A stretch of 64,000 nucleotides of DNA from Candidatus Tabaqchalia intestinavium (GCA_904420005.1 CAJFTT010000044.1:41766-105765); one strand, 5' to 3'; positions 1,974-62,299 are shown, counted from the stretch's first letter. Numbers and translations are program-made. Notes: generated by a model from the sequence alone, not told the origin.

Positions 1974-2012
1974 AACGCGTCGCCCCGATCGGCGCACGCT
2001 TTTTCGCGGGTC

Positions 2013-2053
2013 GCCGCGGACCCCGCTGGGGGTCCGCGGCGGCCCGTTTTGTT
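2013..2053 (+). terminator. Rho-independent terminator after the P-II-like gene
   Basis: Perfect 12-bp stem GCCGCGGACCCC / GGGGTCCGCGGC with loop GCTG, then GGCCCGTTTTGTT. Confidence 0.7.
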
Positions 2054-2605
2054 ACCGTTGCCGGCCGGTTTGCCCACGAGGAAGGCGGCGCGGCGCGCCG
2101 CGGGGCCCGGCGGCCCGCCTGCCCCGTTGCAGACGGTCCGATCCTGATGATAGAAATGCATGTTGCCATTTTTTATGTAAGTCCAGCAGCATGGCAGGAA
2201 AGGGGCGCACGCCGCGCGCAGAGAAGCCTTCAGCCCGCCCGCGCCCGCTGTGTGCGCCCGGCCTGCGCAGCAGGACGATCCCACGGGGATCCCTGCGCCG
2301 CCGACACCGCAGGGAATCCGGGACCTGGCTTGAGCAAACGCCCCGCGCAGCGGTGCGCCGCCCGCACCCGCAGGCAGACCGGGGCGCGGCGCCGGCTGGC
2401 CGGCCCTTTCTGCGGGCCGCGCGTTCGACCACGCTTCGCAAAATCGCGCGTCAAAAGCCGGGCGCGCAACCGCAGAACCAAACATTTTGTTGTCTGCGCC
2501 GCACCTGAATCAAATAAAGCCGGCGTTCGCGGCAATAATAAATCCAGCGCAAAAATTGCCGTTGCCGGCCCGCAATGCCGGCAATAAAACAGGGGGCGGT
2601 GGCTT

Positions 2606-3286
2606 TTGGCAGAATTGATCCGCATCGAACAGGTGTCGAAAATCTACAATCCAGGGGAAAACGAGGTGCGCGCGCTCGACAACGTGGATCTGAAAATTTA
2701 TGAGGGGGAATTCGTGGCTATCATTGGGCAGTCCGGCTCGGGCAAATCGACGCTGCTGGGCATCCTGGGCTGCCTCGACGTGCCGACCAGCGGGCGGTTC
2801 ATCCTGTGCGGCCGCGACACCTCCCGCATGAACGACCGGCAGCTGTCGGCGGTGCGCAATCTGCAGATCGGCTTCATCTTCCAGGGGTTCAACCTGCTGC
2901 CTGAGCTGACCGCCAAGGAAAACGTCGAGCTGCCGCTGGTATACCGCGGTCTGCGGCGGGATAAACGCGAGCAGCTCGCGCTGGCCGCGCTCGAGCAGGT
3001 GGGCTTGTCCCACCGCCTGCATCACCGCCCTTCGGAAATGAGCGGCGGGCAGCAGCAGCGCGTCGCCATCGCGCGCGCCATCGCGATGCGCCCGCCGATC
3101 ATCCTCGCCGACGAGCCGACCGGCAACCTCGATTCCCGCTCCGGGGGCGAGATCATGCAGCTGCTCTATGATCTGCACGAAGCGGGGCGCACCATCATCC
3201 TCATCACCCATGACAGCCGCATCGCCGCGTCGGCCGGGCGCGTCGTCCGCATTCATGACGGCCGCCTGACAGAAGACAGCCAATGA
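2606..3286 (+). CDS. ABC transporter ATP-binding protein, MacB/LolD-like; no permease gene adjacent
   Basis: Walker [10 protein letters not shown], signature [14 protein letters not shown], Walker [10 protein letters not shown]-loop ILITHD. TTG start preceded by AGGGGG 9 nt upstream. Confidence 0.9.
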
Positions 3287-3353
3287 GCGCCGGCTGGTGG
3301 GGAAAATTGGAATACTCCGATCCTTTCGAAGAAGGATTCGCGATGCGCGCCGT

Positions 3354-3384
3354 GCCGGTGGGAAACGTCCCACCGGCTTTTTTG
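3354..3384 (+). terminator. Rho-independent terminator after the ABC ATPase gene
   Basis: Stem GCCGGTGGGA / TCCCACCGGC with loop AACG, followed by TTTTTTG. Confidence 0.75.
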
Positions 3385-3437
3385 TCTCCGCCCCGCGTGG
3401 GGCGCTGCTTTTTGCCGCGGTGCGCCTTTGGTCCGGG

Positions 3438-3466
3438 TCGACAGCGCGCGGGAAATATGGTATACT
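3438..3466 (+). promoter_or_regulatory. Sigma-70-type promoter candidate for the FAD-protein gene
   Basis: TCGACA, 17-nt spacer, TATACT with TGG just upstream of the -10. It lies about 200 nt upstream of the ATG at 3670. Confidence 0.5.
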
Positions 3467-3669
3467 CAAATTCACAGGGAAGATATCGGTTTGCATAGCG
3501 GCGAAGCCGGCGGAAATGCGTTTCGGCCTTGCCGGCCGCCCCCCCGGCGAGCAGCCCGGCCAAAGGGCGCGCCGGCCGACCCCAGCGCGGGGACGGCCCG
3601 CAGGGAAGGCAGGCGCGCTGCTGGCGCTTGCCCTGGGGCCGACACGAAAGGGAAGAAGGAGGCAGCGGC

Positions 3670-59917: not shown

Positions 59918-60180
59918 GCTGCGCATCCTCCTTGCTGCTATCATCAGCCCGCCGGGGCCATCCCCACGGGCGTTGTTTCTGTCTTTTATTATATACTGTT
60001 TTCCGGGGAAAGAAAAGAGGTATTTTTATCTTTTTCGACAGAATCGGGCGCCGGGCGGCGGCGTTATTTCCCCCTCCGGGCGGCCGGCGCGCAGCCTTGG
60101 GCAAAGGGCCGCTGCGCCCCGGCGGGCGCATCTCCGCGCCGCCGGGGCGGGCCGGCGGAACCGCATCCGGCGGCAAGCGG

Positions 60181-60390
60181 GCCGCAATCCCACGCGGGCG
60201 CGGGCAGGGGGAGCAGGCCCGGTCCGGGGAACGCACGGAAATCGCGCAAGCCCAAGCGGGCGGGCGCGCCTGGTGCTTTCCCCGCCCGGATGGAGGGAGG
60301 CGCAATCCCACACAGGCGGGGCAGGCCGCCGCTCCTCAAAGGCAAGTTTGCCCTCAACCGGCGCAATCCCGTACGGGCGGGGTGGGCTGC
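60181..60390. CRISPR. Degenerate CRISPR-like units upstream of the GNAT gene
   Basis: GCAATCCC-type units lie at 60184, 60245 (GCAAGCCC), 60302 and 60363, a spacing of 57-61 nt. Examples are GCGCAATCCCACACAGGCGGGGCAGG and GCGCAATCCCGTACGGGCGGGGTGGG. Confidence 0.4.
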
Positions 60391-60619
60391 CGGGCGGCGC
60401 GCGAATACCGCCCGGCCCGCAGGGAAGAGCATGCCTTGTCCCGATCCACCCTTGCGGCCCTTGCGCGTGGTGGGCGCGCCCTGCATAGCCGCAAGGGAAC
60501 GCGCCCGGACACAGAAGGCGCGGGAAAAACCGCAGCGCCCCCTGTTCGGCGCGGGCCGGGTGTGGTATAATACCCCCAAAGCCCGCCGCGCAGCCGGCGG
60601 GAAGAAAGGACCGGTTGCC

Positions 60620-61159
60620 ATGCAGTTCACCCTTGTTCCCTGGCGGGAGGAATTCATCGACGACATCGCGCACTTTGCCGACAACCCGCGCATCGCGCAG
60701 AACCTGCGGGACGTGTTCCCCTATCCCTATACCCGCGCCGACGCCGAAGGCTATATCCGCGAGTGCATCGCGCACGGCGACGAAGGGCAGCTGTGCCGCG
60801 CCATCGTCATCGACGGGCGCGCGGCGGGCAGCGTGGGCCTGTTCCGGCAGACGGACGTCGCGCGCTGCAGCGCCGAGCTGGGATACTGGCTGGCGGAGGA
60901 TTATTGGGGCCGGGGCGTGATGACCCAAGCGGTGCGGCAGATCACAGCCGCGGGATTTGCGCAGCTGGGGGTCGTTCGCGTGTTCGCGACGCCCTTCGCC
61001 ACCAACCGCGGCTCGCAGCGCGTGCTGGAGAAAGCGGGCTTCCGTCTCGAGGGCGTGCTGGAAAAAAGCGTCTATAAAAACGGTCGGCTGCTGGACAGCT
61101 GCCTTTATGCCCGCATTGCGCCGGGCGCGCAGGAGATGCCGGAACGCGGGCGTGGATAG
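60620..61159 (+). CDS. GNAT family N-acetyltransferase (RimJ/RimL-like)
   Basis: Contains ELGYWLAEDYWGRGVMTQAV and NRGSQRVLEKAGFRLEG, the acetyl-CoA-binding region typical of this subfamily. 179 aa. Confidence 0.85.
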   Translation: MQFTLVPWREEFIDDIAHFADNPRIAQNLRDVFPYPYTRADAEGYIRECIAHGDEGQLCRAIVIDGRAAGSVGLFRQTDVARCSAELGYWLAEDYWGRGVMTQAVRQITAAGFAQLGVVRVFATPFATNRGSQRVLEKAGFRLEGVLEKSVYKNGRLLDSCLYARIAPGAQEMPERGRG

Positions 61160-61181
61160 AGCGTCCGGCGGGAAGCGGGCC

Positions 61182-61430
61182 GCAATCCCACGCGGGCGCG
61201 GGCAGGGGAGAAGCCGGCCTCGGCCCCTCGCTCCGGCGGCGGGCATGCGGCAGCCGGGCGGAACGCGGGATACCAAAGAGGGACGCCGTCTTCCTCCGGG
61301 CGTGCGCAATAGGATGCACGTGCCGGGCCAGCGCAGCGTGGCCAGGCCCACGCGGGCGTGGGCTAACGCTGCACGGCGCTCCATCCCCGGCAACACGTGG
61401 GGGTATTCCCCGGCAGCGCGGGCAAAACAT
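61182..61430. repeat. Degenerate CRISPR-like units downstream of the GNAT gene
   Basis: GCAATCCCACGCGGGCGCGGGCAG (61182) is identical to the unit at 60184. Weaker units follow, for example GGCCAGGCCCACGCGGGCGTGGGCT (61341) and TATTCCCCGGCAGCGCGGGCAAAAC (61404). Confidence 0.3.
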
Positions 61431-61552
61431 CTTCCTCCTGTCTCCTGCATCCCAAAAGTCCGGCCGAGTCCAAACAGCGCGGCCGCCCCGTCCGCCGGTC
61501 TCTCGGATGCTCTATCCCCAGCCGCGAGACGGAGCGCTTTTACACGCGCAGA

Positions 61553-61597
61553 GGCGGCTTAGGAGGCGCGTGCTTTATCCAACTGAGCTGCGCAGAC
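61553..61597 (-). other. tRNA-like 5' fragment (D-arm plus CCU-type anticodon-loop-like sequence), not an intact tRNA
   Basis: The minus strand reads GTCTGCGCAGCTCAGTTGGATAAAGCACGCGCCTCCTAAGCCGCC. The D-arm GCTCAGTTGGATA and loop CTCCTAA look like tRNA, but the anticodon stem pairs poorly and no T-arm or acceptor 3' strand follows. Confidence 0.3.
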
Positions 61598-62299
61598 ATC
61601 TATAAATATTCAGTTTTTGACGGCCACCTGCTGAGCGGAGTTGATTGTTATAACGCCGCAGCGCGAAACGTCTTTACACACTGGGGCCGCTTCCAAATCA
61701 TTTGTGCAGATGCCGTCTGCACAAACGCACGCCTTCCTGCGCCGGGGCGCTTTGACCACGCTTTTCCACTCACCCCGTTGCGCGCAGAGGCGCTTATACC
61801 AGACGGTCGGGTGCGCACCCCGGCAGGGGCGGTTTACCTCTCCTTTCAGAGAGGGAGGCGGGCGGTCGGGCACCTATCCGTGCAAAGAAAGGACGCGCGC
61901 CCCAACCGGCGTCCACCGTCTCTTCTCTGGCGCCGCCAAGGCGGAGCAGGCCGCATATGTAGGCGACCGAGCGGCGTTTGGGCACGGTTGCGTTAACGCC
62001 AACAGCGCATATGGGGCAGGGGCAGCAGGCAGTTCCGGATATCCACCGGCTGTGCGCCGAGCGCGCATGGATGGGGAAGGGCAGCGCGCGGCGGTCATAT
62101 TCGCCGGCCAGGTGCCGGGTGCGCATAGGAAGACTTTTGCCGTCAAGGATAGTGGGATCCTTGTTAAGGCCGGGGATTGGGCGCACATGGTTGGGATAGC
62201 CTCCCCTTTGCCCGCTCCGGCGGCGGGCATGCGGCAGCCGGGCGGAACGCCGGCGCGGCGACCGAACCCGCTCCCTGGTCTGGCGCGCGGCCAGCAGGA

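Follow-up and report, generated by a model that had tools for sequence, protein, structure and literature searches.

Short CRISPR-like arrays in clostridial intergenic DNA

We found about 14 short repeat-spacer arrays of 2–7 units each, i.e., around one locus per 5 kb, in a 64-kb chromosomal segment of an uncultured Clostridia genome (Candidatus Tabaqchalia intestinavium, CAJFTT010000044.1:41766-105765; the whole stretch is hereafter the window), which has a GC content of 65% and carries housekeeping and metabolic genes. An earlier note, made from the sequence of this DNA, had described degenerate tandem units with the geometry of type I-E clustered regularly interspaced short palindromic repeat (CRISPR) arrays in nearly every long gap between the genes; the phenomenon is real, unusual and narrower than first stated: the arrays are of the orphan or neo-CRISPR kind, each locus has a repeat of its own, and their density is unprecedented (Table 1). 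We consider it moderately probable that these loci are relics of genuine type I-E-like adaptation by Cas1-Cas2 at many non-canonical intergenic sites.

The loci are recognized primarily by their period, which the earlier note had put at 59–62 nt and which lag autocorrelation places at 61 nt: at this lag the window has 69 exact 8-mer matches where block-shuffled controls have 4.9 +/- 3.4 (z = 19), and at lag 60 there are 30 (z = 13). Likewise, 12 clusters of 28-nt windows that are at least 20/28 identical are found at lag 61, with 0–2 at neighboring lags not divisible by three. The signal comes entirely from between the genes, with 90 lag-61 7-mer matches in the gaps (5.6 +/- 4.1 at other lags) and a single one in coding DNA. 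No lag-61 excess was seen in 160 loci of other genomes (about 2.6 Mb), nor in additional comparison loci beyond these (about 3 Mb in all); as the 160 include actinobacteria of 70–73% GC, the periodicity is no property of GC-rich DNA. Masking the arrays leaves a weak residue of 13 lag-61 matches against 4.0 +/- 3.5. Tandem Repeats Finder (TRF), run on the window, reports none of the arrays and nothing near a period of 60.

A codon-usage gene call assigns 72.6% of the window to coding sequence, in agreement with the earlier estimate of about 73%, and leaves 29 gaps that reach 150 nt or more and add up to 17.2 kb; the intergenic DNA totals 17.65 kb and is GC-rich as described (0.64, coding DNA 0.65). 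When a gap is counted as array-bearing if it holds a pair of at least 20/28 identity at a lag of 60–62, 12 of the 29 gaps qualify, as do 10 of the 14 that reach 590 nt. Hence, the periodicity of the earlier description stands and its breadth does not. No periodic pair is present in three of the loci that it listed (12430-12790, 24850-25010 and 49560-50190) or in most of 8950-9650, within the listed 8950-10040, and of 61182-61430, and a further one, 36450-36830, is non-periodic and proved to be an inverted 188-nt copy, at 78% identity, of 5718-5904. Recognizable arrays amount to 2.67 kb, about 15% of the intergenic DNA, and occupy the neutral stretch that separates a terminator from the following promoter.

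Table 1. Array loci and related features in the window, in window coordinates.
Position	Strand	Feature	Repeat or identity	Setting
2281..2389		weak pair	lag 60-61, 19-20/28 identity over ~48 nt	
5180..5264		unit pair, weaker support (period off)	lag 57, 22/28 identity	
5629..5716		unit pair	lag 60, 23/28 identity	followed by 188-nt element
9654..10040	-	array, 7 units, periods 57-63 nt; best array	repeat ~GTCTGCCCCGCGGCGCGGGGATGGAACC	begins ~90 nt downstream of a ugpC-like gene's terminator hairpin
14745..14833		unit pair	lag 61, 20/28 identity	
16385..16473		unit pair	lag 61, 21/28 identity	divergent HPr/spoVG gap
17596..17990		array, 4 clear and 2-3 degenerate units	plus-strand repeat ~CTTTCCCCTGCGCCTGCGGGGGAGAT	between spoVG and DAHP synthase gene
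25862..26012		array, 3 units	first two repeats 29 nt, CGGAACGACCCCTGGCGTGCGGGTGTACC, 100% identical; third 76%	starts 62 nt past the stop codon of the lexA-like gene
26183..26271		unit pair	lag 61, 20/28 identity	
28345..28433		unit pair	lag 61, 23/28 identity	downstream of trxB
39134..39400		array, 4-5 units, periods 61, 57, 61, 61	repeat ~GGTTCATTCCCCAGACCTGCGGGGGCACG	between glutaminase gene and NifU-like/GGGtGRT operon
52901..52989		unit pair	lag 61, 22/28 identity	within 289-nt duplicated block
57310..57398		unit pair, copy of the 52.9-kb pair	lag 61, 23/28 identity	
60124..60387		array, 5 units	repeat ~GGCGCAATCCCACACAGGCGGGGCAGGC	divergent zapA/GNAT promoter gap; holds the phage-matching spacer
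60327..60359		phage-matching spacer	matches VapE-like primase/helicase gene of a phage family mainly from gut viromes	
61176..61208		duplicated unit	96% identical to unit 60181-60210 plus 17 nt of upstream spacer	directly after GNAT stop codon

Unit structure and type I-E geometry

Across 27 pairs of neighboring units, a 28-nt block is conserved at an identity of 0.72, and the sequence on both sides of it is at 0.26, which is the random expectation; the spacers are 27–33 nt long with a mode of 32. All units within a locus are in direct orientation and the linkers are unique. The 9.7-kb units read on the minus strand as first proposed; there, in the repeat GTCTGCCCCGCGGCGCGGGGATGGAACC, 5 nt precede a CCCCGCG/CGCGGGG stem, which is followed by an 8-nt tail, ATGGAACC, that begins with AT. 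This layout is clear in the 9.7-kb units and recognizable at 39.1 kb and 60.1 kb. The period, repeat length and 9.7-kb repeat appear to fit type I-E, and the I-E geometry proposed earlier is borne out, with a 28–29-nt repeat, a 32–33-nt spacer, a 61-nt period and, most clearly in the 9.7-kb units, the order 5 nt-stem-8 nt. Canonical I-E arrays display the same dimensions, stem, 5 nt before it and 8-nt tail beginning with AT (e.g., GAGTTCCCCGCGCCAGCGGGGATAAACCG in E. coli K-12 and GTAGTCCCCACGCGTGTGGGGATGGACCG in Thermus thermophilus; the canonical tail is ATGGACCG). The loci fit neither type I-F, which has a 60-nt period, nor type I-C.

In contrast to canonical I-E arrays, the repeats in the window are far from near-identical (mean identity 0.64 per locus and 0.72 for adjacent pairs, with just those at 25862 and 25923 identical), the hairpin is often broken, and dozens of sites are involved rather than one to three. 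Stem positions pair in 60% of cells over 22 units, no better than in slid controls, and no hairpin covariation was detected across these units. The array flanks are GC-rich, with no shared leader seen by eye and with conflicting clues to orientation; neither a leader nor a cas operon was found in the 64-kb window and the adjoining 9.8 kb. Rfam yields no CRISPR-DR family at E <= 5 in the window, where a thiamine pyrophosphate (TPP) riboswitch alone passes the gathering threshold, and a local scan of the 9.7-kb array gives one weak match (CRISPR-DR37, E = 3.7); accordingly, the CRISPR-DR models are uninformative.

A phage-derived spacer and non-CRISPR alternatives

One spacer, at 60327-60359, is phage-derived. 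At least 19 nt of it recur in 55 contigs of IMG/VR and in a single record of a fecal phage, 18 of the 55 contigs match it over 28 nt exactly and 30/33 overall, and the similarity ends exactly at the repeat boundary. Its flank reads ATG in the plus-strand sense and ACT in the minus-strand sense, the latter being the orientation that the repeat asymmetry favors. Searches with the spacers against INPHARED phages gave one real match, and those against plasmids gave only chance matches. Two further short matches to phage contigs, at 12595-12613 and 26481-26497, were rejected as chance. Lack of a match is usual for most CRISPR spacers.

These results bear on the alternative that the units are a non-CRISPR minisatellite, or an element akin to repetitive extragenic palindromes (REP), bacterial interspersed mosaic elements (BIME) or mycobacterial interspersed repetitive units (MIRU), that mimics CRISPR geometry, or else that they are an assembly artefact. 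Like MIRU and REP/BIME, they are short GC-rich imperfect palindromes clustered between the genes of a high-GC genome, their repeats are degenerate and locus-specific, no generic profile links the loci (see below), and both TRF and Rfam come up blank. However, MIRU units are conserved over their full length and BIMEs alternate in orientation with conserved linkers, whereas here conservation is limited to 28 of 61 nt, the orientation is direct throughout, and the linkers are unique, one of them originating from a phage. Since slippage copies whole units, spacers at the random identity of 26% exclude minisatellite slippage; the 61-nt period of type I-E, the exact boundaries of the phage-matching interval and strain differences comprising whole units likewise speak against a MIRU-like minisatellite. 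For REP/BIME, the failure of a family-wide profile is a further point against. As for an artefact, 24048-26662 recurs at 99.8–100% identity in about 10 assemblies of separate samples, and others reproduce 16.4–17.9 kb and 59.8–64 kb; such independent and near-identical reconstructions across the arrays lead us to reject it. We therefore hold this entire class of explanations to be largely refuted and highly improbable. Of the three explanations that the earlier note had entertained, the minisatellite/BIME one is rejected, and decayed orphan arrays and ectopic neo-arrays are both possible.

Locus-specific repeats and the origin of the arrays

Repeats are 0.64 identical within loci, 0.46 between loci and, for comparison, 0.38 among random intergenic 28-mers, which supports the earlier observation that each locus has its own repeat variant. 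A profile of the 9.7-kb units recovers only those 7 units in the window, and profiles built from the best units, which the earlier note had suggested as a means of tracing the element, link no further loci. Because the repeats are locus-specific and a family-wide profile cannot link the loci, each array probably grew locally from its own founder. The clearest instance is at 25862-25951, where an exact 29-nt duplication (25862/25923) brackets an unrelated 32-nt insert; together with the locus-specific repeats, this perfect duplication favors ectopic or neo-arrays. Both features fit less well with independent decay from one canonical repeat, although concerted evolution within arrays could mimic them.

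The scenario that we favor is as follows: a type I-E-like Cas1-Cas2 integrase would have inserted spacers of about 32–33 nt, each time duplicating a segment of about 28–29 nt, at many non-canonical intergenic sites rather than in one or two leader-linked arrays. Each site would have been founded on its own repeat-like GC-rich palindrome, candidate founders being hairpins of the terminator type in the neutral DNA that lies past a terminator and before the promoter that follows, and a few later insertions per site would have given rise to a locus-specific repeat. The arrays may now be non-functional and drifting neutrally, such that hairpins degrade and single-nucleotide polymorphisms (SNPs) and indels accumulate, while recombination between neighboring repeats would shrink them and segmental duplication would occasionally copy pieces elsewhere. 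We infer both that Cas1-Cas2 was the writer and that the founding sites were native sequences as opposed to transplanted canonical repeats.

The main alternative, in our view rather unlikely, is that many small arrays, all with the single canonical I-E repeat of the organism at first, were scattered through recombination, through segmental duplication or by mobile elements and decayed after the loss or silencing of cas, with concerted evolution within arrays (gene conversion and unequal crossing-over) producing the locus variants. Segmental duplications indeed move array pieces in the window (52813-53096/57221-57509, 60163-60210/61161-61208 and, inverted, 5718-5904/36456-36638), recombination between repeats that leaves hybrid repeats is seen across strains, and the loci have a loose common architecture, with a between-locus identity above the random one. 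Against this, such a history needs at least 12 separate canonical arrays per 64 kb at the outset and hence itself requires ectopic seeding. Moreover, most loci lack common spacers, no canonical array with the inferred repeat occurs in 185,579 species-representative genomes, and divergence between loci greatly exceeds that within loci even in 2-unit arrays, where there is little to homogenize.

Strain variation and the state of the arrays

The strain represented by SRR34282136 and SRR34282163 (L241/L242) is about 99% identical to the window in the flanks of the 17.7-kb array. Within this array it has an additional 61-nt unit at 17727 and lacks the 60 nt at 17791-17850, and the junction repeats between the strains are hybrids of neighboring repeats, which reads as a signature of recombinational deletion between repeats from a longer ancestral array. 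The gaps of the two strains differ at about 25 positions in 2.4 kb (~1.0%) versus 2 in 1.6 kb (~0.13%) of coding DNA. The contig of this diverged strain breaks inside the 25.8-kb array.

We take the arrays to be mostly relic and drifting neutrally because their repeats are only 64–72% identical, the stems pair in 60% of cells, the gaps diverge faster than coding DNA and the strain differences are deletions only. The opposite possibility, that they are live arrays served by a distant cas operon or are used as regulatory or terminator-like RNA, appears quite improbable to us. It would accommodate the 100% identical repeats at 25862 and 25923, a unit content that varies between strains with nearly identical flanks, and positions just downstream of genes that make read-through transcription plausible. 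It is opposed by the low identity of repeats within arrays, the roughly 40% of hairpin cells that are broken with no compensatory change, SNPs and indels that accumulate in gaps about 8 times faster than in coding DNA, deletions that explain the strain differences, and identical arrays in the approximately 10 assemblies from different samples.

Relatives and genome-wide searches

The best homologs place the window in Oscillospirales-like Clostridia with no close relative, the nearest PurA being 77–78% identical and the nearest glutaminase 61%. Synteny, approached via homologs of PurA, GGGtGRT and glutaminase, reveals relatives that are lower in GC, compact and array-free: the loci of the nearest ones are about 86% and 93% coding according to their gene tables, with a GC content of 54% and 40%, and no lag-61 signal is present in those with 77–78% PurA identity (GC 54–56%, about 86% coding). 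The earlier note had paired such ordinary gaps in relatives with the prospect of a chimeric or misassembled window; the gaps are indeed compact and free of arrays, and the independent assemblies refute the artefact. Scans with exact and degenerate repeats of the 185,579 species-representative GTDB genomes found no arrays with these repeats, the matches being single, attributable to chance and devoid of a lag-61 signal, and two JGI metagenome scans gave no match; the organism is thus absent from both collections. Look-ups of the exact thioredoxin and ZapA proteins gave no record either.

Evidence that tells against Cas1-Cas2 seeding

Several observations weigh against our preferred reading of the loci as relics of Cas1-Cas2 adaptation at non-canonical sites. 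First, no cas genes were detected in the window by Pfam, NCBIfam and PADLOC scans, as the earlier note had reported, and there are none among the Pfam labels of genes called in the 9.8 kb past its right end. Second, a generic profile made with 22 units of 5 loci detects no additional unit beyond the level of shuffled controls and the similarity between loci is only modestly above random; consequently, the case for a common authorship of the loci rests on geometry. At least three pairs of loci are related through segmental duplication and not through independent founding, and the identical repeats at 25862 and 25923 could stem from gene conversion. Third, the strain differences at 17.7 kb are deletions with no demonstrable gains, and no empty-site allele was recovered; the sole diverged strain keeps the arrays, and the gaps of the relatives are unalignable. 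Fourth, just one of about 45 spacers has a match, six further 22–23-mers from five other spacers are unmatched in IMG/VR, and the PAM (protospacer-adjacent motif) and orientation clues conflict at the sole informative spacer. Finally, 85% of the excess intergenic DNA is left without an explanation.

Known systems and significance

In the E. coli I-E system, off-target integration by Cas1-Cas2 spawns new arrays, according to 10.1101/148544 and PMC7054753, which summarize Nivala, Shipman and Church 2018. These neo-CRISPR arrays resemble the loci of the window in having spacer-sized inserts at non-canonical chromosomal sites, I-E geometry, a local segment of about 28 nt that is duplicated into a site-specific repeat, and growth into small arrays; they differ in being rare population events under artificial over-expression of Cas1-Cas2. 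The arrays of the window, in contrast, have become fixed in a genome from nature, where they occur about once per 5 kb among housekeeping genes; they are degenerate and old, and cas genes are unobserved. Off-target integration at repeat-like sites in vitro is also described for P. furiosus in PMC6698737. Such acquisition is one proposed origin of arrays away from cas genes, as stated in PMC13142298 (citing Shmakov 2020), and the orphan or isolated arrays of Shmakov et al. share with ours the lack of adjacent cas genes, with off-target acquisition, cas loss and mobile-element transfer as proposed origins. The window differs from orphan arrays in that its arrays are numerous and tiny, and their degenerate repeats vary from one array to the next. 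To our knowledge, known orphan arrays number one or a few per genome, usually have near-identical repeats and often a recognizable leader, and we know of no other genome whose array density comes close to that seen here.

How new CRISPR arrays come into being has yet to be settled: demonstrations of off-target integration come only from over-expression experiments, and the natural evidence is circumstantial. Here, a wild genome appears to have fixed at least 14 small arrays within 64 kb, interspersed among genes that include purA, spoVG, ptsH, trxB and folE. If this density were to hold genome-wide, it would document pervasive ectopic spacer integration in nature for the first time, furnish a set of founder sites that reveal the site preference of Cas1-Cas2, and show that an immune integrase can reshape genome architecture by lowering coding density and filling the gaps with GC-rich DNA. 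Such loci escape the standard finders of CRISPR arrays and tandem repeats altogether. A bolder and unlikely extension is that a promiscuous I-E module, present or very recent, writes spacers genome-wide into repeat-like hairpins; were this so, there would be hundreds of arrays at about one per 5 kb, CRISPR integration would be a major mutational force that helped raise intergenic DNA to about 27% of the genome, and the birth of arrays de novo would be a natural process.

Genes, duplications and other features of the window

The genes of the window include purA, leuC, folE, a DAHP synthase gene, ptsH (HPr), spoVG, trxA/trxB, zapA, ABC transporters and a Fur-family regulator with rubrerythrin. 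The TPP riboswitch (59 bits) precedes an operon of the thiS/F/G/H/E/E/D/C type at 41725-48358; as this region has a GC content of 57–59%, clearly below that of the rest of the window, it is possibly a horizontal acquisition. For about 15 kb of the GC-rich DNA between the genes no origin is recognizable, and AT-rich stretches are confined to the promoter-proximal 100–300 nt. A tblastx search for pseudogenes in the gaps against all comparison loci returned only low-complexity matches to actinobacteria. Public pipelines call long, Pfam-less protein genes across the array-bearing gaps 16265-16873 and 25855-26853 (L241 gene 1110-1706 and L252 gene 1218-2024); for the former, a 1-nt indel between the two strains at 16718, which frameshifts the called gene, argues for a spurious open reading frame in GC-rich DNA.

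Past the right end of the window there is a 4-unit array with its own repeat (GGAAA..CCCC.CGCGCCTG.CGCAGG) and spacings of 61, 64 and 60, just upstream of trmE (L239:1294-1507), and a further lag-61 pair at L239:3327-3407; with an array and a pair in these 9.8 kb, the phenomenon continues outside the window.

Duplications are frequent in the gaps. The similarity between the 52.9-kb and 57.3-kb loci that had been noted earlier is genuine and forms part of a 289-nt direct duplication at 96% identity (52813-53096/57221-57509), the copies of which lie on either side of an ABC-transporter operon of 3 genes (minus strand, 53318-56734). Both copies contain two array units, a hairpin resembling a terminator, and the final 18 codons and stop of the U32 peptidase gene, so that the left copy carries a stray gene fragment. 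Shorter direct duplications of 38–52 nt and 85–100% identity (60163-60210/61161-61208, 61229-61269/62213-62253 and 49543-49594/50007-50057) enclose the GNAT gene as well as further stretches between genes; the first of these is an array unit with 17 nt of its spacer. The 188-nt dispersed element (5718-5904 and, inverted, 36456-36638) lies beside array units and has a well-conserved core, TTCGGGAGGAAACCGGGCGCAGG...CTGACGAGGAG..., with no Rfam match.

The purA–lexA-like region displays further peculiarities. In the nearest relatives (L180 and L181) purA is directly followed by the lexA-like gene; in the window (22232-25799) the two are separated by a gap of 371 nt and a solitary leuC that has no leuD next to it. 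Over the part that the contig of the diverged strain (L253) covers (23934-24837), this leuC differs at 57 sites in about 900 nt (~6%), mostly at third codon positions, and the lexA-like gene beside it differs at just 2; the pattern resembles that of an imported leuC allele. A 51-nt coding piece of the lexA-like gene (25691-25741) is copied 670 nt downstream at 92% identity (26415-26465), where it adjoins a unit-like hairpin (26394-26415); alignment with relatives identifies the left copy as the genuine gene.

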